Shown here: positions 15,574 to 39,222 of the stretch, piece by piece
Position numbering within the stretch: position 1 is the first letter of the stretch
How the letters are laid out: every line of letters starts with the position of its first letter
NCBI GenBank assembly: GCA_963666315.2
Contig: CAXXHG010000021.1
Span: 164,869 to 228,868, forward strand
Length of the DNA: 64,000 nucleotides
Origin: Candidatus Binatia bacterium
Lineage (GTDB): Bacteria > Desulfobacterota > Binatia > Bin18
Reading direction: 5' to 3'
Position numbers and translations under genes: made by a program
The notes under the pieces: generated by a model
Told to the model about the DNA's origin: nothing
The model's database searches: none
Seen by the model: the letters and a program-made list of their open reading frames with translations, nothing else

Positions 15574-16200
15574 CTACGCAGCTTTTCCAGCTGCTTGCTC
15601 AGGCGTTCCTAACGCGACTCCGGTCTCTGACGCCTTTTGCGTGCCGGCATCAAGCTGGAGACCGAACCCGTCGGCCAGCCGCGTCAAATGGTTGAAGATG
15701 CCCACAATGTGAGCGACCTCAAGACACGCCTTGTCGTTAAAGCCCAGCACGCGCAACGGCTTCCAGTCGTCCTCGGTCATGCGGGTAGGCGTCTCACTCA
15801 GTTTATCGGCCACAGCGCATAACGCCCGTTCACGCTCGGAGAGACCGCCGACGTCGTTCCAGCGCCGTGTTTTAATCGCTTCGACCAGCTTCGGATTCCC
15901 GTCTTCAACACGCAGAAACTCTGCGTGAGACTGAGTTCAATAGTGGCAGTCTTGGGCTGAGGCTGCCACTCCGGCAACCATCTCCCTTTCTTTGCGACTG
16001 AGATGGCCTGGCGCAAACATGATCTGCAAATACAGATTAAAAAACGCTGGAGCTATTTGGTCGTGCGCGGCGAGCAGCCGGCCCATAGCCGGGACGAAGC
16101 CAAATTGGTATGCGCCCGTTTGCCCAGGGGGCGTGTTCGCCCGCATTTCTTCTTCAGTCGGAATCCGCACCCACGCCTCGGGCACCGTTTGCGCAGTCAT
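15574..16200 (-). CDS. AhpD/CMD-like peroxidase, predicted selenoprotein (CHYU motif, Sec88)
   Basis: ORF 15937..16200 ends CHY-TGA and continues in frame TQSHAEFLRVE...ADKLSETP...IFNHLTRLADGFG; a SECIS-like hairpin follows; GGAGG RBS. Confidence 0.85.
15909..15927 (-). promoter_or_regulatory. Bacterial SECIS-like hairpin
   Basis: mRNA sense cacgcag-AGUUU-cugcgug; the loop begins after 16 nt following the UGA at 15937-15939. Confidence 0.75.
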
Positions 16201-16297
16201 GTTGTCGCCTCCTTTTTTTCTCAGCGATGTCTAGTCCAAAGAGTGAGAGGGCAGCCTACCACCCTCCTGAGGGTGGGCCTACTCCCTTTCGCTAACC

Positions 16298-17189
16298 TTA
16301 ACTGAAGTGCCGAATCAGCTCGGCTCCCTTTTCCAAAATAGGCCACTGGACCTCCGGGGCAGCGGGCTCGATCAGAAAAACAATGCGGGTGAAGCCCAGG
16401 TCAGCGAGTTCGCGCAGCCGTTTGAGCGCGTCGGGGGCCGCCTGTGTATAGGCAGTTAAAACCCAAGTGATGACTGTCAAGTGGAACTCTTCCATCGCCC
16501 GCCCCATCCGGTCGGCTTCGGTTCGGATGGCTTTAAGTCCGTTCGACAGCTCCCCGAGTCCCTCGACTAATCCATCAACCGGAAACCAGCCGTCACAATA
16601 CTCGACCACGCGCTTGGGCGTCCACTTGGAACTCGCGCCCATCAGTATAGGCGGTCCACCGGCTTGCATGGGCTTGGGCCAAGACTATAAGGGGTCGAAG
16701 CTGACAAATTGACCGTGGAATTCGGCCACCTCCTTGGTCCAGATTTCCCGCATGGCCAGGATACTCTCACGGGTGATTTTCAAACGATCTTTGTAGGCAA
16801 CTCCGTGATCGGCCATCTCTTCTGCATTCCAGCCCGCGCCGATACCGAACAAGAAGCGTCCGTTGGCGACTCGATCCAGACAGGCGATTTCCTTCGCTAG
16901 GGTGATGGGATGATGTTCAGGCACTAGGCGACCGAGGTGCCGACCTTGAGCTTTTGGGTCACTGCGGCCGCGGCGGTCAGGCCAATAAAAGGATCAAAGA
17001 ATTCTTTATAATAATCCGGCAGATCCCCACCGCCGGGAAACGGGCTCTGACGGCTGGTCGGAATATGCGTGTGTTCCCCAAAGAAGAGAGATTCGAATCC
17101 GTTGTCTTCTAGCCAGCGTGCGAAATCGACAGGTTGAATGGTGTATGCGTGGGTATTGTTACAATCCCGAAATCCGGTATACCGGCCAT
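16298..17189 (-). pseudogene. LLM-class F420-dependent oxidoreductase, two frameshifts plus an internal TAG
   Basis: Pieces GFESLFFGEHTHIP, DPFIGLTAAAAVT, LVPEHHPITLAKE, GIGAGWNAEEM, FDPL*SWPKPMQAGGPP. Confidence 0.85.
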
Positions 17190-17317
17190 GTATTCCTCCT
17201 GTTGTGTTGACATGTGCAGCCTAGCTGAAATGATAAAAAATGTATTGTGCGCGAGAAGGACAACGCTTGTCTCGGGAAGCGAACAGGAGAGTGCAGACAC
17301 ATACAGGAGGTTTTCTG

Positions 17318-18079
17318 ATGGCAGAGCTTTTAGATGGAAAAATTGCGTTGATCACCGGTGCGGGTTCAGGCATAGGCCGTGCATCTGCACTGACGTTTGC
17401 CCGTGAAGGTGCGAAAGTCATGGTGGCAGATATCGTTGTTGAGGGTGGAGAAGAGACCGTTCGGTTAGTCAAGAACGCCGGTGGCGAAGCCAGCTTTATC
17501 AAAGTCGATATCTCGAAGGCGGCTGAGGTTGAGGCGATGATCAATAAAGTTGTTCAGACCTATGGCCGGATCGACTGTGCGCACAACAACGCCGGTATCG
17601 AAGGCCAGCTGGCTCCCACTGACGAGTACTCTGAAGAGATGTTTAACCGAGTGCTGGCCATTAACCTGACTGGCGTATGGCTGTGTATGAAATACGAAAT
17701 ACCACACATGCTCAAGCAAGGCAGTGGTACCATTGTGAATACGGCGTCGGGTGCCGGCTTGGTCGGTGTGGCGGGTATGTCGGCCTATGTGGCGAGTAAA
17801 CATGGCGTCGTGGGGCTGACCAAAACGGCAGCGTTGGAGTATGCCAAGTCAGGCATTCGGGTGAATGCGGTCTGTCCTCGGCTGATTCAAACGCCGATGG
17901 TAGAGCGCCTGACTCATGCCCAGCCGCAGCTAGCGGAAGCGCTTGTTGCGGCCGAGCCTATCGGCCGAACAGGCAGGCCAGAGGAAATAGCAGAATCCGT
18001 GGTCTGGCTGTGTTCCGATGCGGCGTCTTTTGTGACCGGACATGCTATGTCGGTTGACGGCGGTTATGTTGCGCAATAG
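17318..18079 (+). CDS. SDR family oxidoreductase (glucose-1-dehydrogenase-like)
   Basis: TGAGSGIG, NNAG, YVASKHG; the usual PG in VNAVCPG is PR here. Confidence 0.92.
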   Translation: MAELLDGKIALITGAGSGIGRASALTFAREGAKVMVADIVVEGGEETVRLVKNAGGEASFIKVDISKAAEVEAMINKVVQTYGRIDCAHNNAGIEGQLAPTDEYSEEMFNRVLAINLTGVWLCMKYEIPHMLKQGSGTIVNTASGAGLVGVAGMSAYVASKHGVVGLTKTAALEYAKSGIRVNAVCPRLIQTPMVERLTHAQPQLAEALVAAEPIGRTGRPEEIAESVVWLCSDAASFVTGHAMSVDGGYVAQ

Positions 18080-18100
18080 GCGCATCGTACCGGCTAGATG

Positions 18101-18130
18101 GTAGGGCAGGTTAGCGTAGCGTAACCCGCC
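18101..18130. repeat. GTAG-type REP element
   Basis: gtag ggcaggtta gcgtagcg taacccgcc imperfect palindrome, followed by a second hairpin gggtgggcc-aaa-ggtccaccc. Confidence 0.6.
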
Positions 18131-18225
18131 GATAAATGGGTGGGCCAAAGGTCCACCCGACCAAACGAAAATGGAAGGAGAGGTCATGAGTTCATTACTC
18201 CCCAGTCCGGAGGCAACCCAACAAT

Positions 18226-18756
18226 TTATGAACAACCCGGAGTGAATAACATGCCAATTCTGCGCCTGTTGGGAAAGAACCGCAGAAAGGCGTTAATTTG
18301 AGCATCAAAGGGCCATCGATCACTAACCCCTGTGATGTTTTCTCCTGGACGCTGTAGGTCGCGAACCAGACCTATCCCTATAGGGTCGGACACGCCAGAA
18401 AAGACAATTGGAACAGTCTTTGTTGCTTTGGCGACTGCAAGGGCCGAGGGGGTTGATATGGGCACTATGACTGCTGGGAGCTGCCGTACGAATTCTTGTG
18501 CAATGGGGAGGGTAAGTGAAGGATCGCCGTTTGCATTCTTGAAGACAATTCTGATAGTTTTCCCATTTTCATATCCGCGTTTTCTTAATCCTTCGATCAA
18601 GCCTTGTCTAACCTCGTCAAGCGCAGGGTGTGTGGCTATTTGCGTAATTGCCACTATTGGTAGATTAGACGATGAAAGGAGGTAGGAGAGGAATCGAGAG
18701 TAAACCACTACCAAGAGAAGAACCCCGCCTCCAATCCAAAGACTCTAGCGATTCAT
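18226..18756 (-). pseudogene. ABC transporter substrate-binding protein (ABC_sub_bind family), early TAG and 3'-truncated
   Basis: ATG AAT CGC TAG, then a signal-like region, QIATHPALD, NANGD, PIVFSGVSDPIGIGLV, NITGVSD; ends at about half length. Confidence 0.8.
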
Positions 18757-18924
18757 AACCCCCTCGTAATGAGTTCTACAGCGTCTTTCAGTCTCATGTC
18801 AGGAGACTTCCTAGTCATTTTTGAATTTGGCTATCGTATCAGTAACTGGGGTAAACTCCAACGATACGTCAATGCGAGAAATGAAAAGGGTATGACGGAT
18901 CCTCTTGATTAAACATATTTTTTT

Positions 18925-18944
18925 GTTAGTGAACGTTCGCTGAC
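18925..18944. promoter_or_regulatory. Putative TetR operator overlapping the tetR promoter
   Basis: Imperfect palindrome gttagtgaac|gttcgctgac just before the ATG; ttgatt -35 candidate at 18905; no SD sequence. Confidence 0.6.
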
Positions 18945-18946
18945 TT

Positions 18947-19528
18947 ATGGACATACTCCAACAAAAACCCAACACCAAGCGACCAGCCATGGTCCAAGCC
19001 GCACTGTCCCTTTTTGCTGAGCGGGGACTCGACGGCACGAGTATGCGAGACATTGCCCGAGCGGCTGGGGTACAGGAAGCCGCCATCTACCGTCATTTTG
19101 CCGGTAAGGAAGCGCTGGCCCGAGAACTTTTTCTGAGCGTCTATCTCTGGCACTGCACGCAGGTACAGGACATTGTGACCGGAGGCGAACCGCTCAAAGA
19201 TAAACTCCGCGACATCGTCCGTCAGGAGTTCGGTATGGCTGAGCGCTACCCCGAGGCGTTTGTGTACGTATGTGAGAATGAACAAAGGTTTTTCGCCGAC
19301 TTGCCTGCTGGCGTTCCCAATGTGCGAAGCATTTTGATCGAGTTCATCACACACGGGCAGGAGCGGGGAGAGCTAGATACGGGAGACTCGGACCTGATCG
19401 CCGACATGCTCAGCGGAGCGCTGTGCGAAGTGGCGTTATCGTTGGTGCGCCGACAGCAACAAGACCAGTTGCGGCGTCACATCGACCTGGTGACTGAGAA
19501 GTGCTGGAGCATGATGTGCAAAATGTGA
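18947..19528 (+). CDS. TetR/AcrR family regulator
   Basis: AALSLFAERGLDGTSMRDIARAAGVQEAAIYRHF HTH. Confidence 0.93.
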   Translation: MDILQQKPNTKRPAMVQAALSLFAERGLDGTSMRDIARAAGVQEAAIYRHFAGKEALARELFLSVYLWHCTQVQDIVTGGEPLKDKLRDIVRQEFGMAERYPEAFVYVCENEQRFFADLPAGVPNVRSILIEFITHGQERGELDTGDSDLIADMLSGALCEVALSLVRRQQQDQLRRHIDLVTEKCWSMMCKM

Positions 19529-19662
19529 GAGACGGTCACGTGGGCGCGAAGATACAGTTCGACAACTGTTAGGACCGGTGAGAGAGATAAGGCCACGGAG
19601 AGATGTCAAACAATCAGCGGCCTGAAAATAGGCCCCGTATACGAGGAAGCGGAGGAACACTC

Positions 19663-20226
19663 ATGGAAGCACCGCTGTGGTTACTGCTCAGCTGGGGCGG
19701 AATCGGCGCCATTGATTTCGTCTACAACCACATCTATCGCTACCGCCTCCATGCGCATGCCTCCAGTTTTCGTGAGCATGGGGTCCACACCCTGCTCGCA
19801 TTGGTTCTCACCGTCACGGTGGTGATGCTAGTCTTTGTCGAAATGGGGACGCTGGGATTTACTATCTTTCTCGGCGTTCAGGCATGTGCGGTGATCTTCA
19901 CCCTGTGGGATGTGTCAATCGAGCCCGCGTCGCGGGAGCCGCTGGGAGGATTGCCTCCACACGAATATCTGGTGCATACGATCGTCTTTCTGATACACGG
20001 CGCCTTTGTGTGGGCGGTGATCGCCGACGCCGATAAATTGGTACACGGCGCGGGATTCGGACTATGGCGCTGGCCTCAACTTCCCGCGTTTTTGCTTTTT
20101 TATGCCGTGCTCTTTACGTTTGTTGGCGCCGGTGTCTTGGTCTTACACGTTTACCTGCTGGCCGTGGGTTATCGGAAGTTCAAAACGGTGCCTGGAGTGC
20201 CTATTGAAGGAACCAGCCGTGTGTAA
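19663..20226 (+). CDS. Membrane protein with His/Glu/Asp motifs, unknown function
   Basis: About 5 TM segments; DFVYNH, EHGVH, WDVSIE, EYLVH; GGAGG RBS before ATG at 19663. Confidence 0.75.
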   Translation: MEAPLWLLLSWGGIGAIDFVYNHIYRYRLHAHASSFREHGVHTLLALVLTVTVVMLVFVEMGTLGFTIFLGVQACAVIFTLWDVSIEPASREPLGGLPPHEYLVHTIVFLIHGAFVWAVIADADKLVHGAGFGLWRWPQLPAFLLFYAVLFTFVGAGVLVLHVYLLAVGYRKFKTVPGVPIEGTSRV

Positions 20227-20260
20227 GGTTGGCAAGGTTGGCTGGTTGTGTGGAGGAGCA

Positions 20261-21577
20261 ATGCTGTTCCAAAGTGTCTGTTGTGTGGTTCTGTTCCTGT
20301 GGAGTGTTGCGGCGGTACACGCCGAGCCCGCGCGTATGTGGCACACTATTGCTGAGCTTTCCGAGACAGAGCGTGCCGAGCTCGACCTGCGGACCGACAC
20401 TCCCCGCGACCCTCAGGTGCCGTATCTGCCGGCTGAAAAATACCCGTTCGCTGCGCCGTATACTGCTGAGGAGATGGGCTACCGCGCCATGGAGTTTACC
20501 CATATCTCGCGGTGGTCACATGCTATGGCCGACGCCTTTGGGGCGCTGACCAGCAGCGGTTATCTCAACCAGGGGGTCATGGTTGGCTTGAATTTCTACC
20601 TGCCTGGAGATGCGGGGATGATGGGCCAAGTTCACACCGCGCCTGGTGAGGACTATTATCGCATGGCCTTCTACTACACCTATCCGCCTGAGAGTAACGG
20701 GGCCCAGGATTTATGGGTGCTCAAACGCACGGATCAGCGGTTCACCACCAAGCTTGATTATTTTACCTATTCTCCCACTCTGCGCCGTGTACGTCGCCAG
20801 CCACAGCCGCGCCGTGATACCCGCTTTCCTAATAATGCTCAGTCCTTTGACGATGTCATTGGGCGGGATGCGTGGGAGTTTTCCTGGCGACTGCTGGGCA
20901 CGGATGTCCTGGATAAGACGGTCCGGTTTCCCAACACGCGGACCTTGGTGACGTTAGCTCATCCGGATGGGACGTTCCGTGAAGTACCGACGGCGCAGCT
21001 CAAGATGATGGGGGACAGCTATCCCTTTTATACCGCTGAGGGCGGGGTAGCGTGCTATGTGGTGGAAGCCGAGGCAAGGGCAGAGTGGCTGCCCGATTAT
21101 GCCATTAGCAAGCTCATTTACTGGCTGGACCGGCATTATTTCTATCCACTGCGCATCGAGCAATACAACCGACAAGGCAAGCTCAATATGATCGAGGAGC
21201 GACTGGCCAAGCAGGAGAACCCTGCCCGCGAAGACAGAGGCTACGCCGCCTTACTCGCCCTGTACTATGATCTTTCCTTGGATCTCATGAGTTACAGCCT
21301 GCACGACGCCCACTTGGTTAAAGAGTGGACGCCGAAGGACCGCGAAGTCCTGTTCGGTCCGGACTTTATGCGCCGCGGGTGGCTGATGTACCCGCTCAAA
21401 ACCCAGGCCCTGGTCAACTCACCCGCCGAGTTTTACCTGCGCCCGCTCTTATACCTGGACAAGTTTCCTCAGGAGCGGAAGATCGAACTCTCGCCAGAGG
21501 TCGAGCGGCGCGTGGGGGCTCAAGAAGCCGCCGGTCATGTAGTGTTCGACTCCCAAGTCGAGGCGAGTGCACCGTGA
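20261..21577 (+). CDS. DUF1329-family periplasmic protein (LolA/outer-membrane-sorting-like)
   Basis: Signal peptide (AVHA), YSPTLRRVRRQP, FDDVIGR, CYVVEA, SKLIYWLD, IEQYNRQGKL. Confidence 0.8.
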   Translation: MLFQSVCCVVLFLWSVAAVHAEPARMWHTIAELSETERAELDLRTDTPRDPQVPYLPAEKYPFAAPYTAEEMGYRAMEFTHISRWSHAMADAFGALTSSGYLNQGVMVGLNFYLPGDAGMMGQVHTAPGEDYYRMAFYYTYPPESNGAQDLWVLKRTDQRFTTKLDYFTYSPTLRRVRRQPQPRRDTRFPNNAQSFDDVIGRDAWEFSWRLLGTDVLDKTVRFPNTRTLVTLAHPDGTFREVPTAQLKMMGDSYPFYTAEGGVACYVVEAEARAEWLPDYAISKLIYWLDRHYFYPLRIEQYNRQGKLNMIEERLAKQENPAREDRGYAALLALYYDLSLDLMSYSLHDAHLVKEWTPKDREVLFGPDFMRRGWLMYPLKTQALVNSPAEFYLRPLLYLDKFPQERKIELSPEVERRVGAQEAAGHVVFDSQVEASAP

Positions 21578-21673
21578 AGCAAGTATAGTAGCGATCGTCG
21601 ATACGTTTCACGGTCTGCACGAGCGCGGGCCGCTTCCTCTTTTGTCCAACTCCGATTACAATTTCTTCCACCT

Positions 21674-22375
21674 ATGGACAAGGTCGCTCTTCCAGTCGTA
21701 ATCGCTGATGCAGAAGCCCTCATCTTCGACCTCTTTCACACCCTCACGCGCGTCGACCCGGCGTGGGGGACATATAAGCTGCTGGGTATTTCTAAAGAAG
21801 TGTAGAACACGCACCTGCTTGAAAAGTCGCCTGACCGGCTCACTGGGAAAGAAACTGATCCGCTGACTATTATCCAAAGTCTGGCCCAGGCGATTGACCC
21901 GTCCATTCCACACCATGTCATCCAGCACGGGACGGAAAATCGGATCCAAAAGTTTGCGCAGGCGCTGATCGAGATACCCACGGAAACGGTCCGGTTTTTC
22001 GAGCGACTGAAGAGCACGGGTAAGAAAATCGGTTTGCTCAGCAATGCCGACATCATGGAGTGTGCGGCCTGGGAACAATCTCCCATTGCTCCGTTTTTCG
22101 ATAGCGTGCTCTTTTCCTGCCGCGCGGGCTACGCCAAGCCCGCGCGGCAGATTTATGAAATGAGTCTGCATGAATTACAAGTCCGGCCGCAAGACAGTGT
22201 CTTTATTGGTGATGGTGGGTCTGGAGAGCTGGAAGGCGCGCAAGCAGTTGGCATGACAACGGTCATGATGACCGGCATTATCAAAGATCTCTGGCCGGAC
22301 AGGATAGAGCCCAGAAAACCGTATGCTGATTTTGTGATTGAAAGTCTGACTGAGTTAATCGAAGATCCGCCATAG
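21674..22375 (+). pseudogene. HAD family hydrolase, frameshift plus internal TAG
   Basis: ALIFDLFHTLT motif I is out of frame with KIGLLSNAD, KPARQIY and VFIGDGG; EV*N stop near 21803. Confidence 0.8.
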
Positions 22376-22377
22376 CT

Positions 22378-22974
22378 GTGCCGCCCATTTTCCGAATCGC
22401 CAGCGAACGAGACGCTGAGCAAATCCTGGCGATCTACGCGCCGATCGTGCGGGATACCATCATTTCGTTCGAGCTCGAACCCCCAAGCGTGGCAGAGATG
22501 CGGCAGTTTATCCTCAGCAGCCTGGCAACGCATGCCTGGATGGTGTGTGACAATATTGGAGAGATCTTAGGCTATGTGTACGCAACCCAACATCGTAGCC
22601 GGGCTGCGTACCAGTGGGCAGCGGATGTATCTGTCTACATCAAAGAACAGACGCGGCGTTCAGGATTGGGGCGGGCACTGTATACTTCACTGTTCGAACT
22701 GCTCAAATTGCAAGGTTTCTATCAGGCCTATGCTGGCGTTGCATTGCCGAATCCAGCCAGCGTTGGTCTGCATGAAGCCCTGAGCTTTCAGGCTATCGGT
22801 GTGTATCGTTCAGTTGGGTTTAAGTTTGGCCTGTGGCGGGATGTGGGCTGGTGGTGCTTGCCGCTCCAAGCCGCAGACGCACCTCCCCCGAGGCGGCCCA
22901 TTGATTTGAAAGATGTAAAACAAGACTCCGCAGAATGGAAAGTTGCTCTCAAGTCCGGCTTGTCACGGTTTTGA
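22378..22974 (+). CDS. GNAT N-acetyltransferase (phosphinothricin acetyltransferase/ArsN-like)
   Basis: IYAPIV, ISFELEPP, RAAYQW, SVYI, GLGRALY, PNPASVGLHE, GFKFG-WRDV. Confidence 0.88.
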   Translation: MPPIFRIASERDAEQILAIYAPIVRDTIISFELEPPSVAEMRQFILSSLATHAWMVCDNIGEILGYVYATQHRSRAAYQWAADVSVYIKEQTRRSGLGRALYTSLFELLKLQGFYQAYAGVALPNPASVGLHEALSFQAIGVYRSVGFKFGLWRDVGWWCLPLQAADAPPPRRPIDLKDVKQDSAEWKVALKSGLSRF

Positions 22975-23049
22975 CGAACAACATATCGACGGTAGAACAG
23001 TCGGGAAATATGAGTCCACCAGATCGCCCGTTCTTTCTCTCTCCTTTCA

Positions 23050-23083
23050 TTGCCTTCCTGGTCGCAGCGAGTAGAATGTTGCT
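23050..23083 (+). promoter_or_regulatory. sigma70-like promoter, probably giving a leaderless mRNA for the TA pair
   Basis: ttgcct-16 nt-tagaat, then 6 nt to the ATG at 23084; no SD sequence. Confidence 0.55.
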
Positions 23084-23353
23084 ATGCCTGAGCTAGGTCG
23101 TTTCTTCGGGATTATTATCCATATGTATGCTGAATTCGGTGCACCACCTCATGAGCCCCACTTCCACGCGTACTACCAGGACGATGTAGCAATCTATGGA
23201 ATAGAGTCGATTGAGCTCATTGCTGGGGCGTTTCCACGACGCCAACAGCGTCTGGTTGAAGCATGGGCCGAATTGCACCAAGAAGAGTTGCTGGCCGACT
23301 GGCAGCAGTTACAGGCAGGCCGGAAGCCTAACCCTATCAAGCCACTCAAGTAG
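23084..23353 (+). CDS. DUF4160 protein (putative type II toxin)
   Basis: MPELGRFFGIIIHMY...HEPHFHAYY...LVEAWAELHQEELLADW. Confidence 0.88.
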   Translation: MPELGRFFGIIIHMYAEFGAPPHEPHFHAYYQDDVAIYGIESIELIAGAFPRRQQRLVEAWAELHQEELLADWQQLQAGRKPNPIKPLK

Positions 23354-23365
23354 ATGGGAGAATAC

Positions 23366-23680
23366 ATGCAGCATCCAATACACAAGGTCAAATCCTTCGA
23401 TAGCTTAGGACCTTACACACTCCGTATCTGTTTTGATGATACTACCGAACAGGCTATCGATTTTCAGCCTGTTCTTGCAGGCGAACTGTACGGCCCACTA
23501 CAGGATCAGGCATTATTCAATCAGGTCAGAATTGACCCAGAGGTCCATACTCTTGTCTGGCCTAATGGTGGCGATTTTGACCCCGCTCTTTTGCATGACT
23601 GGCCCCAGCATTGTGTAGCGTTTATGGCTCGCGCCCAGCAATGGGAAGAAGTGTCAAGGGGAGGGCATGCCTCGGAGTAA
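23366..23680 (+). CDS. DUF2442 protein (putative antitoxin)
   Basis: YTLRICFDD, GPLQDQALFNQVRID, TLVWPNGGDFDPALL; adjacent to DUF4160. Confidence 0.85.
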   Translation: MQHPIHKVKSFDSLGPYTLRICFDDTTEQAIDFQPVLAGELYGPLQDQALFNQVRIDPEVHTLVWPNGGDFDPALLHDWPQHCVAFMARAQQWEEVSRGGHASE

Positions 23681-23756
23681 CCAGGGGAAGCGTCTTTTGG
23701 GAGACTTGGGAGAACGGAGTACCTCAATGCACGGGTCTCCTGCTGCGTAAGACACT

Positions 23757-24254
23757 ATGGCTACTCCTCCACAATCGGAACATGCAGAACATGCAGAACA
23801 TACGGAGCTGAAACTGGCGCGGCTGAGCGATGCCTACCGCATCGCGCTTATGTCGCGTGACCTTGTTGAACAGGGGCTGCCCTGGTCCTGGCCCGCACGC
23901 CGGGTGGCCGTACATATTCGCGGTGGTGAGAGTAATGTGCTCACCGCTTGGGTGAAGGGCCGACTCGTTGGTTTCGCGATTATGCAGTTCTATGACGACC
24001 GGGCGCATTTGAATTTACTAGCAGTCGATCCTGCTACGCGGCGTTTTGGGGTTGGTCGCCGTTTAGTCGAGTGGCAAGAAGAGGTGGCCCTCAGCGGAGG
24101 GATGCATATTGTCAATTTAGAAGTCCGAGCCAAAAACGCTGGTGCGAGAGCATTTTACCGCATGTTGGGATATCGAGAAAGCAAACGTATCCCCGACTAT
24201 TACAGCGGTCGGGAGGCAGCGATCCGCATGACGCATGATTTGCGACACGGCTAA
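23757..24254 (+). CDS. GNAT acetyltransferase (RimI-like)
   Basis: AHLNLLAVDPATRRFGVG, LEVRAKNAGARAFY, YYSGREAAIRM. Confidence 0.85.
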   Translation: MATPPQSEHAEHAEHTELKLARLSDAYRIALMSRDLVEQGLPWSWPARRVAVHIRGGESNVLTAWVKGRLVGFAIMQFYDDRAHLNLLAVDPATRRFGVGRRLVEWQEEVALSGGMHIVNLEVRAKNAGARAFYRMLGYRESKRIPDYYSGREAAIRMTHDLRHG

Positions 24255-24333
24255 CACAGGCTGTTACTGGATATCAGGCCATTGGCCCTGTTTGCCGGCG
24301 CATGTGCACGTCGTGCGTCCATACTGACGTTTC

Positions 24334-26382
<2,049 letters not shown>

Positions 26383-26384
26383 TT

Positions 26385-26417
26385 AAAAGAAAGCCCCTGA
26401 AGAAAACTCCAGGGGCT
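26385..26417 (-). terminator. Intrinsic terminator just upstream of the ligA start
   Basis: Minus strand agcccctg-gagttttctt-caggggct followed by ttctttt. Confidence 0.7.
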
Positions 26418-26468
26418 ACGAGGGACCGACGAAACACGATGCTTAGATTTTCTAAACGACGAAATTGC

Positions 26469-26496
26469 ATTATATCGACTCTGCCCGACGGTGCAA
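26469..26496 (-). promoter_or_regulatory. sigma70-like promoter upstream of the ligA leader
   Basis: Minus strand ttgcac-16 nt-tataat. Confidence 0.6.
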
Positions 26497-26533
26497 TAAC
26501 CTCCCTGCCGGAATGGACTTTTTGCCTGCTCTC

Positions 26534-27889
26534 TTAGCCTTGATCCAGTGGCATTCGCACATGGTATTGCTGCCGACCGCGTCCAATAGAGAGTAGGACG
26601 TTTTGTTTCAGACGGACGTCTATAATTTTCCGGCGGAAGTCATCCCGCGTATGTATCTGGATTCCGGCCAGACCGATGATCTGGTCTCCCCGTTCTAACC
26701 CAATCCGCACGGCTGGACTGCTGCGTCGGAGCTGTCCAATCTGAAGACCGTACGGCGTTTCTTTGACGTGAAAACCAAGCAGCCGCCACATCAGGTCGTC
26801 GGCTTTTTCAAACGGAAAGCGGGCCGCCGTAACGGTGAGGGTATCTTCTTTTTCCTGGCGGATAATACGGAAGCGCAGGCTGTCTCCACTTTGGTAGCCC
26901 CGCTCGCGCTGTCGATATTCCTCGCTGGAACGTATCGTTTTGTCGTTGAGGCTGATGATCACATCTCCCCGCTGAAATCCGGCGCGCGAGGCCGGGCTGG
27001 CGGCTTCAACAGTCCGCACCAGGACGCCTTTATTATTGTTCAAAGAGAAATGAAATGCCAAATCGGGAGTCAAGGTCTGTACGACTAACCCGACCCACGG
27101 TGACTCAACCGTCCCGTGGCTGATCAACTCTTCTACAATGCGTTTTGCCCGAGAGATGGGAATGGCGAACCCAATGCCTTGGGCCTTGCCGTAGATGGCG
27201 GTGTTGATGCCGATCAAGGCGCCGTTGATATTGAGCAGCGGCCCGCCCGAATTGCCGGGATTAATGGACGCATCGGTTTGAATGAAATCATAATACGTGC
27301 GACCATCGGTGTTCAGCGAGCGGTTCTGAGCGCTGATGACGCCGGTTGTGATGGTATGCGAGAGGCCGAAGGGATTGCCGATGGCGATAACCGTCTCGCC
27401 GATCATCAGATCGTCGGCACTGCCCAGCGGCAGGTGGGGCAGGGATGTCGTACCGTCGATTTTCAGGACCGCGAGGTCAGAATCAGAATCCGCGCCAACC
27501 AGGCGGGCCTCGAATGTGCGTTCGTCAGCAAGTTGCACCTGGATTTTTCCCGCTTGCAGAATGACGTGTTCATTGGTCAAGATGTAACCGTCGGGACGAA
27601 TGATGACCCCAGACCCCAGACTCCGCCCTGGCCGCTGGCGCGGTAAGGGTTCGAAAAAGTCACGAAAGAATTCATCAAAAAAAGGAGAGCCGCCAAACGG
27701 GCTGCGCGCACGGCGCCTCCCCGCCCCGGACAGAATACTGACAACCGCCGGACTGGCCTTTTCCACCACAACCACAACCGGACTGCGGCGTCCTGACTGC
27801 GCCCATACGGGAGGGGATGGGGAGGCGTACCGCCCAATGCCTCCAACTACAAGGAGGAAGATAACAATCTGAGATGAAGGTCTATTCAT
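26534..27889 (-). CDS. htrA: DegP/HtrA serine protease with two PDZ domains
   Basis: Signal peptide, LGSGVII, TNEHV, DLAVLKI, IQTDASINPGNSGGPL. Confidence 0.93.
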   Translation of the reverse strand: MNRPSSQIVIFLLVVGGIGRYASPSPPVWAQSGRRSPVVVVVEKASPAVVSILSGAGRRRARSPFGGSPFFDEFFRDFFEPLPRQRPGRSLGSGVIIRPDGYILTNEHVILQAGKIQVQLADERTFEARLVGADSDSDLAVLKIDGTTSLPHLPLGSADDLMIGETVIAIGNPFGLSHTITTGVISAQNRSLNTDGRTYYDFIQTDASINPGNSGGPLLNINGALIGINTAIYGKAQGIGFAIPISRAKRIVEELISHGTVESPWVGLVVQTLTPDLAFHFSLNNNKGVLVRTVEAASPASRAGFQRGDVIISLNDKTIRSSEEYRQRERGYQSGDSLRFRIIRQEKEDTLTVTAARFPFEKADDLMWRLLGFHVKETPYGLQIGQLRRSSPAVRIGLERGDQIIGLAGIQIHTRDDFRRKIIDVRLKQNVLLSIGRGRQQYHVRMPLDQG

Positions 27890-27936
27890 AATGTCATAAC
27901 GTCATACTGGTTCGTCTGCGCAGTCTGCTCCCGATA

Positions 27937-29010
27937 CTATTCCGTCAGACCGGGTTGCTGCATGGTCAGACAATGAATGGCACCAAAGCCGAGTACCAGG
28001 TCGGCGCACGGAATCCCAACAGCCCGTCTGGTCGGAAAAAGTTCTTGAAGCACCGCAAGCGCCTGCTGGTCGTTCGGATGGTCATAGGTCGGGACAAGGA
28101 CAACGGCATTGGCAATATAGAAATTAGCATAACTAGCCGGCAGTCGCCCGCCCGCCTGCTCGACGGGACCGGGCATGGGCAAAGGAAGGACGTGGAGCGG
28201 CTGCCCGGCCTGATCCGTCATATGCTGCAGCCGTTCGAGATTATCTTGGAGTGGTTTATAATTCACATCAGTCGGATCGTCTTCTACAGCGCAGACGACG
28301 GTCGTGGGATTTACGAACCGGGCGATGTCGTCTATATGCCCATCCGTATCGTCGCCCGTGATACCGTCTCCCAGCCATCCGATATGGGTAACGCCGAGAT
28401 AGGCCCGGAGTGTAGCCGCAATATCTGAGCGGCTCAGTGTCGGGTTGCGATTCGGGTTGAGCAAACACGATTCGGTCGTGAGCAGCATGCCACACCCATT
28501 CACGTCAATGGAGCCACCTTCGAGCACCAGGTCTGGGGTAAAAGGTGTGATGCCGAGGTATTGGGCAATCTGTTGCGGGACTGCATTATCCAAGTCCCAG
28601 GGCGGATATTTCGATCCCCACGCGTTGAACGTCCAGTCTGTCAGTGCGAGTTCGGCTGTGTCAGAGTGCCGCCGAGTGAGAAAGATCGGGCCGTGGTCGC
28701 GGGCCCAGGCGTCGTTGGTTGGGATCTGGTGCAAGGCAATCTGAGAGAGTGGGATCCCTGCAGCGTGCAGCTGTCGCCGCACGCTAGCGGCAGTGGATGC
28801 GTCATTGACGCAGATGTTGACCTGCTCGGTCCGGTGTAGAACGTTGACCAGCTGGATAGAGATCTCCGGGATGGTTGCAAACTTCCCCGGCCAGGTTTCT
28901 CGATTATGTGGCCAGGCCAGCCAGGTGGCGGCGTGACGCTCCCACTCTGCGGGCATGCGGAAGCCCAGACTCGCGGGGGAGGGTAGTGCATCTCGGGAGG
29001 GAAGACTCAT
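27937..29010 (-). CDS. aguA: Agmatine deiminase
   Basis: RMPAEW, DAWARDHGP, LEGGSID, DTDGHID, ASYANF, GAIHCLT. Confidence 0.93.
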   Translation of the reverse strand: MSLPSRDALPSPASLGFRMPAEWERHAATWLAWPHNRETWPGKFATIPEISIQLVNVLHRTEQVNICVNDASTAASVRRQLHAAGIPLSQIALHQIPTNDAWARDHGPIFLTRRHSDTAELALTDWTFNAWGSKYPPWDLDNAVPQQIAQYLGITPFTPDLVLEGGSIDVNGCGMLLTTESCLLNPNRNPTLSRSDIAATLRAYLGVTHIGWLGDGITGDDTDGHIDDIARFVNPTTVVCAVEDDPTDVNYKPLQDNLERLQHMTDQAGQPLHVLPLPMPGPVEQAGGRLPASYANFYIANAVVLVPTYDHPNDQQALAVLQELFPTRRAVGIPCADLVLGFGAIHCLTMQQPGLTE

Positions 29011-29043
29011 CGAAGGAAGGCGACCTCTGAAAACCAGCACTGC

Positions 29044-29937
29044 TCAATCAATATAGCGCAGGTTCATATCTCCGTAAGCGTCAATACGGCGATCACGCAG
29101 AAACGGCCAATGCTGCCGGGTTGTTTGAATGGCCGTCAGGTCACACGGAACAATCAGGGTTTCTTCACCGTCAGCGCCGGCCTGTTTGAGCACACGGCCA
29201 AACGGGTCACTCACAAACGACGTCCCCCAAAAATTGAGTTTACCTTCTTGGCCGACGCGGTTGATGGCAGCAATATACACCCCATTTGCGATCGCATGGC
29301 CACGTTGGACAGTCTGCCAGGCGTCCTGCTGGACCTGGTATTCTTGGGCATCGTCTGCCGGATGCCCGCCTATGGCCGTAGGATAAAAGAGGATCTGGGC
29401 TCCACTCAGGGCGGTTAAACGGGCTGCCTCTGGGAACCATTGGTCCCAGCATATGAGTACGCCGATCCGCGCATAGCGGGTGTGAAACGTCTGAAATCCG
29501 AGGTCTCCTGGTGTAAAGTAAAATTTTTCGTAATACAGCGGATCGTCGGGAATATGCATTTTGCGGTATTTCCCGATCAGGCTGCCGTCGGCATCAATGA
29601 CGACGGCAGTATTATGAAAGACCCCCTCCGCCCGCTTTTCAAACACGGGTACGATCAGCACGACTTGATGGCTGGCTGCAAGCTGACTCAGCCGCTGCGT
29701 CGTCGGGCCCGGAATGGTCTCGGCAAGTTGAAACCGCTCCACATCTTCACTTTGGCAGAAATACTGGGAACGAAAGAGTTCTTGGAGGCAAATGATCTGT
29801 GCGCCCTGCCGGGCTGCACTCTGGATGTGGTGCACTGCTTTAGCTAGATTGTCCTGGAGCTGATCAGTGCAAGACATCTGGACTAGGCCCAGCGTGACCT
29901 GCTGTAGAGGGGAGCGACGAGTCTGTGTATCTACCAC
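29044..29937 (-). CDS. aguB: N-carbamoylputrescine amidase (nitrilase family); start approximate
   Basis: LQELF, YRKMHIPDDPLYYEKFYF, ICWDQWFPEAAR, WPFLRDRR; adjacent to aguA. Confidence 0.9.
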   Translation of the reverse strand: MVDTQTRRSPLQQVTLGLVQMSCTDQLQDNLAKAVHHIQSAARQGAQIICLQELFRSQYFCQSEDVERFQLAETIPGPTTQRLSQLAASHQVVLIVPVFEKRAEGVFHNTAVVIDADGSLIGKYRKMHIPDDPLYYEKFYFTPGDLGFQTFHTRYARIGVLICWDQWFPEAARLTALSGAQILFYPTAIGGHPADDAQEYQVQQDAWQTVQRGHAIANGVYIAAINRVGQEGKLNFWGTSFVSDPFGRVLKQAGADGEETLIVPCDLTAIQTTRQHWPFLRDRRIDAYGDMNLRYID

Positions 29938-30228
29938 ATACAGAATTGTAGGCGATGGGGTTCCCCGGCTCAATGCCGTCGGACACACGGCCTTGCAGAT
30001 AATGAGGATGCATAAGCAATGATACGCCACGAATCTGCCCTTCGCTGCGCGAGGCAGCAACGCGAGTTCGATACCATGGTAGGGCCGACGATTCGGGGTT
30101 GACTTTTTTGCAACCAGGGGGTGTAAAAGCAATTTATGCTACGGTCACGAGAGCGCTGCGCTTCGGCGTAGGGATACAAACATTTACGTGCGCGACGCAG
30201 CGCCTACAGCGAGCAAAGGATACACGCT

Positions 30229-30993
30229 ATGGAATACGTCGATATCAGCCAGGTCATTAAAGCCGACGGGTTGCGCATCACACTCGTGCAAGGGTTTCCC
30301 AGCCCGTGGGCCCAGGCTGCCAAGGCAATGATGGAGTATAAGAGTCTCGACTATATTGCCGGTCCGCACCAGCCCGGTGGCGAAAATGCCGAGCTGGCGG
30401 CGTGGTCGGGTGTGAACAGCGGGCCGGTCGTTGCCTGGAACGATGAGCAACCTATCAATCGCTGGGATGACATCCTGTTTCTCCTGGAGCGCCTGGCTCC
30501 GGAAAAACTGCTGATCCCTGAAGCGGCGGCAGAACGCGTGCAGTTTTTCGGCCTGGCGCATGAAATGTGCGGCGAACTCGGCTTCGGCTGGAACCGGCGT
30601 CTTGACATGTTTAGACCAGCCATGGAGTCGGGCGAACCGCCGGCAGGCATCGTCAGCATGGGCAACAAATACGGCTACAACCAATCCGATGTTGCGCTGG
30701 CCAATCCGCGCACTATCGCCCTGCTCGAGCTGTTGGCGGCGAGACTCGAGGCGCAGCGCGACAAGGGCAGCAATTACCTCATCGGTGATCAGGTGACTGC
30801 GGTCGATTTTTACTGGGCTGCGTTCAGCAATATGGTGGTCATTCAACCGCCCGAAGAGTGTCCGCTCGATGCCGCTATCCGGCCGATGTTCGAAAACACC
30901 CCGCCGGATGTAGCTGCAGCAGTCGCTCCGATTCTGATTGAACACCGTGATCAGATTATGCGCGCGTATTTCAGAATCCCGATGGAATTCTGA
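30229..30993 (+). CDS. GST-like protein
   Basis: PSPWAQAAK, SGPVVAW, YLIGDQVTAVDFYWA (GST C-terminal motif). Confidence 0.8.
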   Translation: MEYVDISQVIKADGLRITLVQGFPSPWAQAAKAMMEYKSLDYIAGPHQPGGENAELAAWSGVNSGPVVAWNDEQPINRWDDILFLLERLAPEKLLIPEAAAERVQFFGLAHEMCGELGFGWNRRLDMFRPAMESGEPPAGIVSMGNKYGYNQSDVALANPRTIALLELLAARLEAQRDKGSNYLIGDQVTAVDFYWAAFSNMVVIQPPEECPLDAAIRPMFENTPPDVAAAVAPILIEHRDQIMRAYFRIPMEF

Positions 30994-31022
30994 TCATCGG
31001 GACGGTGACTCCGGGGGTCTAT

Positions 31023-32150
31023 ATGCCGAACGTCGTTGAAGAAATCCCTACCGAGTTGAAACCAGCCGCAGAGGCGGCGCTGGCCTGGATCAACCAGGAA
31101 CACGGTGCCCAATTTAAGCTCACCGGGCTGGTGGACGCCGACAAGGCCATGGGCCGAAAAACGGGTCAGCCGATCGAGCTGGAGCTGGTCCTGTGCGAGG
31201 GCGACCTGTGTCTTCGCGAGCATGTGCGCGTGGAGGCCACGAGCCAAGGCTTCGAGGTCAGCGCGATCGAAGCCGAGACGTTGGTGATTCCGCCGCATCT
31301 GGACCCGCCGCTCGGGGTGCGACAGAGCTGGCTCGATGATCAACTCGGGAAGCACGCCTTCATCGTGCTCCTGTTCTACCGCGGGCTGTGGTGACCGCCC
31401 TGCCGCTCCGAGTTGCGGAGCTACGCAAAGTCCGGGGTTGTCGACGCGATCCGCGCAGCTGGTGGTGAAGTTTTCGCCTTAACTAGTGAGCCGCAGAGCC
31501 TGGCGACAGAGGCCGGGCAGGCGTGGGAGATCGGTTTCCCTGCCGTCGGCGATCCCCATCACGAGATACGGAGCGCCTGTCGCCAGGGCGGTTTCTTAAA
31601 CCTATTCGCGAATGAAGACTTCGGACATTTGAGGTTGAGGTCTTGGGCCGCCCATCCCAAGGGCTACTTCCAACCTGGCGTGTTGGCGCTCACGAGTGCA
31701 GGCGGCGTGCTCTATCGGTGGCGATGTCGCCCGACGCACAAGAACATGAGCGGCGCCGGCCGGCGCCCAACCCCTGCATACGTGTGGGCGCAGATGCAGT
31801 CGCGGCTCGCGGACGGCACGGATGACGCGGAGTTGGACGAGGCTCCCGAGTTTGCCAGGCAGGACCTGTCGTGGCCGTTCTTCGTCACGATACTCCTGGC
31901 ACACGGCTGGTTCTTGCGTCCAAAAGCGTTCCCGCTCGGTCGTGCCGATGACATGCCGTCTGCGAAACCTCAGAATATGAAGCGGCGGATCGCCATTTTC
32001 GTCGGCGCCTGGATCGCCGCGTTCGCGGTCCTGCCGACTGGTTGGGCGGCGCTGGGTCTGGCCGCCTGGGGAGCACTCGTATGGCCCGGCTTGGCTGAGC
32101 TTCACCGCCAGTTCCAGAACGTACCGAACGGTGAACCCGACCCGGTTTGA
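31023..32150 (+). CDS. Peroxiredoxin/AhpC-TSA-like predicted selenoprotein (UPPC, Sec124) with an extra N-terminal domain and C-terminal membrane segment
   Basis: LLFYRGLW-TGA-PPCRSELRSY; ORFs 31005..31394 and 31413..32150 share a frame; thioredoxin-fold motifs VFALTSE, GFPAVGDP, QPGVLAL; SECIS-like hairpin. Confidence 0.85.
31405..31421 (+). promoter_or_regulatory. Bacterial SECIS-like hairpin
   Basis: gcuccg-AGUUG-cggagc; the loop begins after 16 nt following the UGA at 31392-31394. Confidence 0.75.
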
Positions 32151-32367
32151 GACTCAACCGCCCGGATGCCTCGGCGCCTTATCAGGGGAGGATGGCCGGG
32201 CATTCAGAAGCGGTTGCGAAGAGTGCGCCAGAATCGGGAAGTGGTCCAAGGTGCCGCATCTTGGAGGGAATCGGCACATTATCCAGGCCCTGGCAAACTT
32301 CTGAGACGCGTGTGGGGCGGCCTCGGGTCAGCCGGAAAGTTGGGAGCCAACCGGCTGCAGGAGCCGG

Positions 32368-34719
32368 TTAGTACAGTTCCTCAAGCAACGCTTTCGCATT
32401 CTTCAGGTCTGCCGTGTCAAAGCCTTCGGAGAACCAATTGTAGACGGGAGCGAGCAGCTCCCGGCCTTCAGCCTGCTTGCCCTGTTGCTACCACAGCCGG
32501 GCAAGACTTGTGGCGGCGCGCAGCTCCCAGGATTTGGCCTGTTGGTGTTGAGCAAGGCGGATGGCCTTGTGAAAGCATGCTTCCACCTCTTCCCCGCCGT
32601 TGAACTCTGAACCTTGAACCCTTCGACTGGGCTCAGGACAGGCTTTGAACTTCTCCAGCGTCAGCTCCCCCTGGAGCCGATACAATTCGGCCTCATAGTA
32701 ACGCTCCTCGGTTCTCTCGACAAATGCCAACGCCTCGACCACTACCCTCACCTGCCTCGGCTTGTCCTCCCTTCCCGTATGCCTCGGCCAATAAGGCAAG
32801 AAGATGCGACCGTCCCAGCTCTGACCCCGTGGGCTGCCAGGCAGCCAGTCCCTGGCGTATCTGGCTGATGCCTTCCTCTCCTTGCCCCTGCTGGGCCAGT
32901 GCCCAACCCCGCAGCATAGGCCCCTGCGCCAAGTACACCGGAAATCCCTGCTCGGTCGCCAGCGCAATGAGTGCCTCGGCCCGGTCTTGGACTGCTCGCC
33001 CCTCCCGGCGCAACTGATGGCGTGTGGCAGTTTAGTCCAGGGCAAAAGCCAGACTAAGGAGGTAAGAGAGTTCTTGGGCCAGGCTCAGTGACTAACGACT
33101 CCTTTTTAGGGCCTGCTCCGGATAGCCAAGATGCCACAGGACCTTGGCCGCATAGCTGAGAGAGGCTACCCCAGGGTCAAAAGACCCATAGCTGAAAGTC
33201 AAAGAGTGGTGGTGCTGGGAGTCGTAGAGAGCACTCTCTTGCTCCAGCTGTATTCGGGCGGGGGCTCGCTCTCCGAGGTGGAACAAGACGCCCCCCAACG
33301 CAAAATGGGCTACCACCAGCAGAGCGGGGTCTTGCCTGCTTTGGGCAAAGTGCAGCAGTTGCTCGCATAACTCGTGCGCCCTCTTGTGCTCCGCCCGTAG
33401 TATATAAACCGCCTGCAGTCCAAACAGCATCGGGAAGAGTTCAGGGATTTCCCCCATCTGCTTACACAGCTCCTGTGCCCGCGTATAAGTGTGTTCCGCT
33501 TCTGGGGCAGCCCAGCCTTTAGTGACCTGCAGCGCCAGTTCTTGCTGGCTACGCGCAGGGCTGTCTTCAGGGGTCTGGAGCACCTCTATGGCAGTGGTGA
33601 AGTGCCCAATCGCCTCGACAGTCGCCGACCGCTGCACCGCCTGGTGGCCGGGGCAAGTTTGAATTCGTAGAACAACCGCGATTTGCCTAAGGCTGGCTCA
33701 CCCAGTACCCCCACGATTTGGCCGTGGCCTTCTTTCGCTTGCGCCCGCGTGCCCTGCATCTGGTCCAGTTCACTCTGTCGCCCCACAAAACGGGTCAGCC
33801 CTCGACGGGCGGATACTTGCAGACGAGTTCTAAGCAGACCAGCGCCTACGACCTCATAGATATCGAGCGGTTCTCCCACGCCCTTGATGTCAGCAGGACC
33901 GAGCGCCTTCAGCTCGAAATACCCCTCGGTCAACTTCCGCGTATACTCGCTAATCACGATCGAGCCCGGGTTCGCCATTTGCTCCATCCGCGCTGCTAAG
34001 TTCGTGGAATGCCCGACTGGGACGTAGTCGGTGTGGAGATCGTCTTTGCGAATGGACCGCACCACGACTTCGCCGGTATTGATCCCGACGCGCATCTGGA
34101 GCGGAATGCCATGTTTCAGGCGGACTTGGTCATTATACCCCCGCATCTCCTCTTGCATCCGCAGCGCTGCATATAGTGCCCGTTGCGGATGGTCTTCATG
34201 CGCAATTGGGGCACCGAAGAGGGCAAAGATGCCGTCGCCCAACGCCTGGGCCACATAGCCGTCATAGCGATGCACGGCGTCCATCATCAGCTGCAGCGCA
34301 GGGTCAATAATGGCGCGGGCGTCTTCGGGGTCGAGGCCTTCAATGAGTGCTGTCGAGCCTTTGAGGTCAGCAAACAGGGCGGTGATGGTTTTGCGCTCCC
34401 CATCCGCTGCGCCACGGGATTCCATGGCGGCTTGTTCAGCGCGGATACGCTCGGCGAGATGTGGCGGGGTGTACGTTGAGAGAGGTTGGGATTGCGCAGA
34501 CGAGGGAGTGGGTGCGGAAGCTTGGCCACCCTTACCCATCCAGACGAGGATTTTTCCCTCTTCATCTGCGGCTACTCCTTGGGCCTCAATAAGTTCAAAC
34601 CGGAGGTCGTCGAGTGCGTCCTCATCGAGGGAGAATTGGCGCTTCAGTATCCGATACGAGACTCGGCCCTGCTTCTGGAGCAATTCACGCGTTTTCTCCA
34701 ACACTTCAAGGATATCCAT
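32368..34719 (-). pseudogene. Class III adenylate/guanylate cyclase + STAND ATPase + TPR protein, internally deleted and with stops
   Basis: ERKTITALFADLKGST, GDGIFALFGAP, RVGINTG, NLAARME, FVGRQSE, GEPALGKSRL, then a jump to TPR; [25 protein letters not shown]. Confidence 0.88.
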
Positions 34720-34836
34720 GGGCACCTTTGTCACATGGGGGATTGTAGTAAAGCGGGCCGATTATACAAGAAGTCCGTGCGACAACAGCGCGGGCGCAAC
34801 AGGTCTGAGCTTTTCGCACGCAGCAACAAGACGAGA

Positions 34837-34865
34837 TTGCCAGCTCCATAACTCCCCCCTATGAT
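34837..34865 (+). promoter_or_regulatory. sigma70-like promoter
   Basis: ttgcca-17 nt-tatgat. Confidence 0.55.
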
Positions 34866-34893
34866 ACGACGTAGTTCTGGCGAGGAGGAGATT

Positions 34894-34962
34894 ATGCCAA
34901 CATTCAGGACCGAAGACGGGGCCGAGCTGTATTACTCAACCGTCTGGAGCGTCCTCGAATGA
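34894..34962 (+). pseudogene. N-terminal stub of an alpha/beta hydrolase-like gene, ATGA-overlapping the SSS gene
   Basis: GAGGAGGAG RBS, then MPTFRTEDGAELYY...*, typical of the start of non-heme chloroperoxidase-like hydrolases. Confidence 0.5.
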
Positions 34963-36515: not shown

Positions 36516-36703
36516 GATTTGTCAGCCATCGCGCCTCTCACCCGTTGCGCCATAATCATCTGCAGCCGACACTGTATTCACGGTCTTTCGTCCCGGCGTC
36601 ATGACGATTGGCGCTTGAGCTGACTTGAGACAGCGCGGGGTCAGAGCGAACTCATGGGCCGGTCTGTCTACTGCGCGTCTCGTCCCTCTTGTGAGGAATA
36701 CGC

Positions 36704-37489: not shown

Positions 37490-37931
37490 AGCTCAACCTC
37501 CGGCTTAAATAGATGAATAAAAAGATTGTAGCGGAAGATGTCAACGGGGTTGAGACCCGCATGTGTAGGGGTGGCTGCTGTAGGTTATTGAGATGCGCGC
37601 ACTCCTCGGTAGATCTCGGGACCTATTCGAGAGGGACGAGACGCGCTGTACGTAGCCCTCGTGTTGCTTCTCTAGTGTTTTCATTTGCATGACCGCGCTC
37701 AGCCGGAGGCGGCGCGTGAGCGATCCCCGTTTTCCGTTCCCGGGGTACTCCGAGGGGACTCAGAAATGCTCTTGATGTTCCCCGGCCAGTAGTCTACGCT
37801 CCTGTTCGATCAGTTCTGGCGGGCGGATGAGAACGTCCGCCGCCACGCAGTGAGGACTAGGCAACCTGCCGCCGAGACAGTGTTCGGCTCGCCGGGGCGC
37901 CCGTCTTTCCATGAAGAGTAAGGAGCACGCA

Positions 37932-39023: not shown

Positions 39024-39027
39024 CCCG

Positions 39028-39222
39028 ATGCAGTGTCTGATCATTGCGGCCGGCCAGGGCCGCCGACTCCGACACCAGGGCGACAGCAAACCCCTCGTGC
39101 CCCTCTTAGGCGTCCCCCTGATCGAACGCGTCATCCGCGCCGCCCGAGAGGCGGGCGCGGATGACTTCTATGTGGTCATCGGCTACCAGGGGGATCGGCT
39201 AATGACTCTCACCGCCCGTTGA
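39028..39222 (+). pseudogene. Truncated nucleotidyltransferase (IPCT-like, di-myo-inositol-phosphate pathway)
   Basis: MQCLIIAAGQGRRL...SKPLVPLLGVPLIERVI...VVIGYQG directly after ino1; homology stops near 39200. Confidence 0.75.

Follow-up and report, generated by a model that had tools for sequence, protein, structure and literature searches.

Two putative selenocysteine insertion elements with a common loop and minimal spacing in AhpD-like and Prx-like genes of a Candidatus Binatia contig

The window analyzed here is a 64,000 nt stretch of a Candidatus Binatia bacterium genome (NCBI GenBank assembly GCA_963666315.2, contig CAXXHG010000021.1, positions 164,869 to 228,868 of the forward strand). 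It contains two genes that each carry an in-frame TGA codon followed directly by a short hairpin (Table 1). Gene 1 encodes an AhpD-like, peroxidase-related protein and gene 2 a Prx-like protein of the AhpC/TSA type. In both, the TGA is predicted to encode selenocysteine (Sec, U) and the hairpin is a candidate selenocysteine insertion sequence (SECIS). Each element has 16 nt between the UGA and the loop, a loop that reads AGUUU in gene 1 and AGUUG in gene 2, and a G-C closing pair. A preliminary description of this DNA had reported SECIS-type hairpins in two unrelated selenoprotein genes with this common spacing, closing pair and loop, and this was borne out, as the strings it quoted each occur once, at 15909-15939 (-) and 31392-31421 (+). 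It had also taken the shared architecture to be a consensus of the lineage. In our view, both are likely to be ordinary bacterial SECIS elements, each in a known selenoprotein family (the AhpD-like family with CxxU and the Prx-like family with UxxC), and their likeness is probably not a lineage signature.

Gene 1 has 208 codons, including the one in-frame TGA, which is found in the motif CHYU. It ends in a TAG stop at 15574-15576, and an AAGGAGG-like ribosome-binding site lies immediately 5' of the ATG at 16200. The translation scores 127.9 bits against TIGR01926, 'peroxidase-related enzyme' (cutoff 81.8), and also matches PF02627 (Pfam CMD); the family matches span the TGA. Full-length homologues have Cys at the U position, with homology on both sides of it. 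Both the CxxU motif and the above-cutoff score are shared with the AhpD-like selenoproteins (TIGR01926 / COG2128), which are among the published prokaryotic selenoprotein families in the portions of PMC13188914 and PMC2398784 consulted. More than half of the gene-1 matches (39/65) are open reading frames (ORFs) of 114-129 aa, and the three that were aligned all begin just past the Sec position. Some other homologues (P0002-P0004, P0015) have W or G exactly at the Sec position. Their alignment suggests that the TGA was read under another genetic code, unlike the usual truncation mis-annotation. The gene-1 subtype, CHYU-TQSHAEFLR, was not seen in GOS Dataset S1, where UTQSH gave 0 matches.

Gene 2 encodes 375 residues plus a stop codon, with WUPPC at residues 123-127. 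Its start was placed by alignment to full-length Cys homologues, which open with MP.V.ETIP. Residues 104-184, a region that spans the UxxC motif, match PF00578 (AhpC/TSA) with 34.9 bits (cutoff 26). The domain and the motif are those of the Prx-like thiol:disulfide oxidoreductase selenoproteins (PF00578, UxxC), a family that is likewise among the published prokaryotic ones in the consulted portions of PMC13188914 and PMC2398784. Two parts of gene 2 set it apart from these proteins, a further domain of ~100 aa at the N terminus and a hydrophobic region at the C terminus, neither of which is covered by any Pfam or NCBIfam model. Sequences with the gene-2 architecture and the motif WUPPCR[S/F/L]EL are present in GOS Dataset S1 (25 sequences).

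A profile search of genome contigs with the gene-2 alignment gave 80 orthologous loci, in which the codon aligned to the Sec codon was located by tblastn. This codon is TGA in 78 of the loci and TGT in the other two, and the frames are open and conserved on both sides of the TGA. Full-length gene-2 homologues have Cys at the U position. Among the 120 gene-2 matches listed, ~114 cover only 47-65% of the query, and the three aligned all begin just past the Sec position. The truncated public homologues of both genes are the usual mis-annotation of selenoprotein genes.

Table 1. Positions of the two genes, their predicted Sec codons and the parts of the predicted SECIS hairpins in the window.
Feature	Position	Strand	Basis
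Gene 1, AhpD-like / peroxidase-related selenoprotein	15574..16200	-	ORF with TGA=U, TIGR01926, PF02627
Gene-1 Sec codon UGA	15937..15939	-	ORF with TGA=U, homologue alignment
Gene-1 SECIS hairpin	15909..15927	-	sequence, minimum free energy folds, codon-choice probability
Gene-1 5' arm CACGCAG	15927-15921	-	sequence
Gene-1 loop AGUUU	15920-15916	-	sequence
Gene-1 3' arm CUGCGUG	15915-15909	-	sequence
Gene 2, Prx-like (AhpC/TSA) selenoprotein, WUPPC	31023..32150	+	ORF with TGA=U, PF00578, homologues
Gene-2 Sec codon UGA	31392..31394	+	ORF with TGA=U, homologues, 80 loci
Gene-2 SECIS hairpin	31405..31421	+	minimum free energy folds, covariation (79 sequences), synonymous-site pattern
Gene-2 5' arm GCUCCG	31405-31410	+	sequence
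Gene-2 loop AGUUG	31411-31415	+	sequence
Gene-2 3' arm CGGAGC	31416-31421	+	sequence

Could these TGAs be true stops or disabling mutations, in pseudogenes or split genes next to incidental hairpins? The public gene calls mostly split both genes, and no Sec machinery was seen in the window, both of which fit such a reading. Even so, we regard it as extremely improbable. The TGA is kept at the same codon across nearly all of the orthologues with conserved open frames on either side, it takes the catalytic Cys position of CxxC-type motifs, the hairpin covaries (see below), and the family is present in a published selenoproteome set.

The gene-1 hairpin has a 7 bp stem, which becomes 8 bp with a GUU triloop if the loop A and the last loop U pair. 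It codes for His-Ala-Glu-Phe-Leu-Arg-Val, and the loop falls within GAG UUU (Glu +6, Phe +7). The 45 nt from the UGA fold with a minimum free energy (MFE) of -16.7 kcal/mol (z = -2.5), and the hairpin is present in the MFE fold. In gene 2 the stem is 6 bp and the hairpin lies within Arg-Ser-Glu-Leu-Arg-Ser codons, with the loop in GAG UUG (Glu +6, Leu +7). The corresponding 45 nt fold with an MFE of -15.5 kcal/mol, and the hairpin is again present in the MFE fold.

For gene 2 the hairpin could be followed across an alignment of 79 sequences, i.e., the 78 TGA-bearing loci and the window. Of these, 52 have the loop context GAGTTGC, 26 have GAGTTAC and one has GAGCTGC, always at the same spacing. 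Standard pairs make up 98.7% of the stem cells, compared with 30-55% in controls with the 3' partners shifted by 1-3 columns. Compensatory changes are found in two of the six stem pairs (CG/UA in one, CG/UA/GC in the other). Two bases of codon +5 are tracked in this way, the second by the third base of Arg +8 and the first by the first base of codon +9. Through this covariation, Ser/Ser, Leu/Gly, Phe/Ser and Arg/Gly appear as matched amino acid pairs at +5 and +9. The pairing is not perfect, as GCC at +5 leaves a G-G mismatch in six sequences. On a FastTree phylogeny of 81 rows, built from the protein downstream of the SECIS codons with those codons left out, the type of codon +5 needs at least 12 changes. 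Thus, the compensation arose repeatedly.

Synonymous sites in gene 2 follow the same pattern. Third codon positions inside the hairpin (columns 21, 24, 27 and 36) vary by 0-0.17 bits, compared with 1.0-1.9 bits in the flanking positions. At Glu +6, all 79 sequences use GAG, whereas GAG makes up 57% of the 2073 Glu codons in the rest of these genes; at Leu +7, 78/79 use UUR, against 20% of 2861 elsewhere. Both Cys forms have a stem mismatch, and one of them (L068) also has GAA in place of GAG and has lost the loop G. With covariation, frozen synonymous sites inside the hairpin and saturated ones outside, the gene-2 hairpin is, on this comparative evidence, selected at the RNA level.

These figures bear on whether the GAG-UUN loops could be a coding coincidence, where the protein's need for Glu-Phe/Leu dictates the codons, any stem-loop would suffice and the loop itself is not selected as RNA. 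The amino acids are indeed constrained. Glu +6 and Phe +7 are invariant in all 11 aligned gene-1 homologues, including three Cys forms, and the Glu is kept in the Cys forms of gene 2. Moreover, when synonymous codons are drawn for each peptide at the codon usage of the window, the gene-1 peptide alone yields a stem of at least 5 bp at the site with a probability of 0.23. The same draws give the observed hairpin together with an AGUUN loop far less often, with a probability of ~0.025 for gene 1 and ~0.004 for gene 2. With the codon bias at +6 and +7 in gene 2, and the GAA in one Cys form, this makes a coding coincidence very unlikely.

Both elements were compared with the general bacterial SECIS model. 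As given in the consulted part of PMC13188914, after the bSECISearch consensus of Zhang and Gladyshev (2005), this model has a 3-9 nt apical loop, a 4-16 bp upper stem, a G in the first two loop positions (mostly N1-G-[G|U]-N-N2), 16-37 nt from UGA to loop and an MFE of at most -7.5 kcal/mol. The part of PMC4605307 consulted describes the usual SECIS as a 6-8 bp stem with a conserved loop G ~20 nt past the UGA, bound by SelB WHD3-4 near the mRNA entrance. The two elements agree with the general model in loop, stem, G followed by U, spacing and MFE, and the gene-2 element also shows the compensatory changes that the model looks for. Like the model, they lie in the coding region directly past the UGA. 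They are found at its 16 nt minimum spacing, and they share features that it does not demand, namely an A before the G, a U after the GU and the G-C closing pair.

Experimentally characterized elements show a similar pattern of likeness and difference. The G-U dinucleotide in the loop is the main SelB contact. The loop of the Escherichia coli fdhF and Moorella thermoacetica hairpins is GGUC(U), compared with AGUUN here. These hairpins, to which SelB winged-helix domains 3-4 bind (PDB 1WSU and 2UWM, as cited in the consulted part of PMC4605307), likewise have a short stem of 6-8 bp and the loop G ~20 nt past the UGA; no bulged U is evident in the two window elements.

How unusual is it to find the two elements in one window? 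The strict motif TGA-N15-GAGTTNC, scanned on both strands, matches twice in the window, at these two sites. The expectation is 0.49, and two or more matches occurred in 9/100 shuffles; thus, the bare pattern is only mildly unusual. GAGTTNC alone is not enriched in the window (26 occurrences vs. 30.3 expected). The part that is not chance is the context, as each TGA occupies, in frame, the redox position of a protein that has Cys homologues.

Several results weigh against two ordinary SECIS elements. The gene-2 45 nt fold has a z of only -0.80, and folds of 66 nt are not significantly more stable than shuffles at either site (z = -0.74 and -1.01). A search of the whole window with Rfam at gathering score gave no SECIS match, and the Rfam SECIS models gave none at E <= 10 around either site. 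The gene-1 hairpin is supported by one sequence and by codon-choice statistics. In gene 2 the Cys-form controls are few (n = 2) and the sequences of the covariation set are related to one another. Genes for SelB, SelA, SelD and tRNA-Sec were all lacking in the window, so that Sec use by the source organism is inferred here; fdh was lacking there too. Finally, the two loops agree beyond what the general model asks for, with a chance under a flat model that we roughly estimate at well under 1%. This agreement in the A, the U and the G-C pair leaves room for a narrower preferred SelB ligand.

If the two elements act as ordinary SECIS elements, the established mechanism predicts the following. The hairpin would form just past the UGA, and the C-terminal winged-helix domains of SelB would bind its apical loop, with the early G-U as the main determinant. 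SelB-GTP-Sec-tRNA(Sec) would thereby be tethered at the mRNA entrance and the UGA decoded as Sec. The traits common to the two elements, i.e., a small loop, G-U at positions 2-3, a G-C closing pair and a stem of 6-8 bp, are probably dictated by this general SelB/SECIS geometry, and the loop G, 18 nt past the UGA in both genes, marks the shortest spacing allowed. Both genes reach this geometry via an in-frame Glu (GAG) and Phe/Leu (UUN) pair at +6/+7, where the coding context supplies the loop and the choice of codons completes it. As the loop consists of in-frame Glu-Leu/Phe codons, both RNA-level selection and protein context shape it. Glu and Phe/Leu are also found in the Cys relatives, which argues that the two elements are alike because one SelB constraint acts in both genes on a coding context that favours it.

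The preliminary description had instead proposed that UGA, 16 nt and G-AGUUN-C form a narrow consensus of the lineage's own, set by its SelB, present in all of its selenoprotein genes and usable for mining the selenoproteome. Some of our results fit this. Both Sec-type TGAs in the window carry the motif and, as that description had expected, ordinary stops do not: 0/21 have a SECIS-like hairpin (a stem of at least 6 bp and a G-led loop 14-20 nt downstream of the TGA) among the TGA-terminated ORFs that make up part of the window's 59 ORFs of at least 120 aa. The motif is also specific. In 1.4 Mb, i.e., the window and the 80 loci on both strands with ~38,300 TGA triplets, it has 82 matches, 80 of them at Sec sites; by type, 78 are gene-2-type, one is the gene 1 of the window, and two lie off Sec sites and have 2-bp stems. 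The agreement of the two loops beyond the demands of the general model could be read in the same way.

The distribution of the motif argues otherwise. GAGUU[G/A]C at the same spacing is present in 77 of the 78 TGA-bearing gene-2 orthologues, which are labelled as other phyla or classes. By submitter labels, some of which are doubtful, these loci include Alpha- and Gammaproteobacteria, Myxococcota, Acidimicrobiia, Hydrogenedentota and others. Since the gene-2 motif is found in such distant groups, it is a property of the gene family, or of SelB in general, and not of the window's lineage, and judged from these sequences a lineage-specific consensus is not supported for gene 2. Within one contig (L077), the gene-2 orthologue carries the AGUUG element and a second selenoprotein gene lies directly downstream (L077:3524-4783, +). 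This neighbour encodes a Prx-like protein (AhpC-TSA + DsbD_N) with the motif WUPPCW, whose sequence is also present in GOS Dataset S1, and the SECIS predicted for it combines a 5-bp stem with a GGU loop that starts 21 nt past the UGA. The AhpD-like sequences in part 1 of GOS Dataset S1 mostly have residues other than Glu-Phe/Leu at +6/+7, unlike gene 1, which makes GAG-UUN in register impossible for them. As far as the window's own genome is concerned, the proposal rests on two genes. Taken together, we think a consensus of the lineage unlikely. As a mining descriptor the motif kept its specificity, but it missed the L077 gene with its 21 nt and GGU loop, the only other selenoprotein gene recognized in the flanks. 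The strict motif thus misses selenoprotein genes and should not by itself define a selenoproteome.

Wider scans of the window and loci for additional selenoprotein genes were noisy and insensitive, and only L077:3758 stood out. A scan for a hairpin with a nearby Cys gave 713 candidates, nearly all off-frame noise. When ORFs were joined across a TGA, 136 candidates resulted, mostly adjacent genes that share a frame, and the filter wrongly dropped the window's gene 1. A codon-usage frame test gave 535 candidates in the window and loci. No relative of gene 1 was detected in the 80 gene-2 loci at E <= 1e-5. Its relatives on plasmids (74 records) all show less than 60% identity, and the listed ones carry annotations as ordinary proteins; they were set aside. 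Among them, the Agrobacterium Ti plasmid relative (CSYC-VFNHRP) lacks both Glu-Phe at +6/+7 and an in-register hairpin, and it is too far removed from gene 1 for use as a control.

A further reading is that G-AGUU-N-C exactly 16 nt past the UGA, always as in-frame GAG-UUN, is a distinct and tightly constrained minimal-spacing class of bacterial SECIS recognized by the SelB of several phyla. We consider such a class doubtful. If it exists, unrelated selenoprotein families would have arrived at it independently, and A-G-U-U, beyond the G-U alone, would act as a high-affinity ligand for SelB almost universally. Mining with the descriptor would then recover a defined subset of selenoprotein genes and hardly any false positives, and the class would explain the paired +5/+9 amino acid substitutions in the Prx-like family.

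Other features of the window were noted in passing. The closest relatives of the window among the loci are L001 and L002, with ~84-91% DNA identity in aligned blocks; the L001 contig stops ~1.3 kb before the gene-1 position. Window blocks 30001-31005, 32226-39284 and 43679-57256 are absent from both. One of these blocks holds a 254-aa ORF at 30229-30993, just 5' of gene 2. This ORF matches nothing in Pfam, and none of the 80 loci contains a relative of it, so that no operon link with gene 2 can be claimed. L001 and L002 are titled 'uncultured Enterobacteriaceae bacterium', which is at odds with the LigA comparison. The LigA of the window is 90% identical to that on the L001 contig, and its nearest named relatives are from metagenome-assembled genomes labelled Desulfurellaceae, Deltaproteobacteria or Candidatus Binatia (72-75% identity). 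The 'Enterobacteriaceae' titles look like placeholder taxonomy.

Near gene 1 are a 123-aa ORF at 16298-16669 (-), with no Pfam match, and an ABC_sub_bind ORF at 18226-18714 (-), which covers model positions 2-141 of 293 and abuts an SDR gene on the opposite strand. Both look like gene remnants. Adenylate/guanylate-cyclase-domain genes are located at 32488-34734 (-) and 55157-56317 (-). Two further ORFs (181 and 185 aa) come after the first, on the same strand but in different frames and without Pfam matches, and together the three could be one large regulator in pieces. Ordinary polyamine genes at 27937-30132 (-) encode an agmatine deiminase and an N-carbamoylputrescine amidase, adjacent and in the same frame with a TGA stop between them; this in-frame TGA junction is a false candidate in read-through scans. 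An arginine decarboxylase of the same pathway is encoded at 57561-59633 (+).

In annotation, each gene should appear as one full-length selenoprotein; the public homologues are for the most part split or cut short at the UGA. Our understanding of Sec decoding is unchanged by these two elements. The gene-2 family, however, is a clear case of an RNA signal in a coding region that freezes synonymous sites and forces paired amino acid replacements, and it is useful as a teaching or benchmark case.

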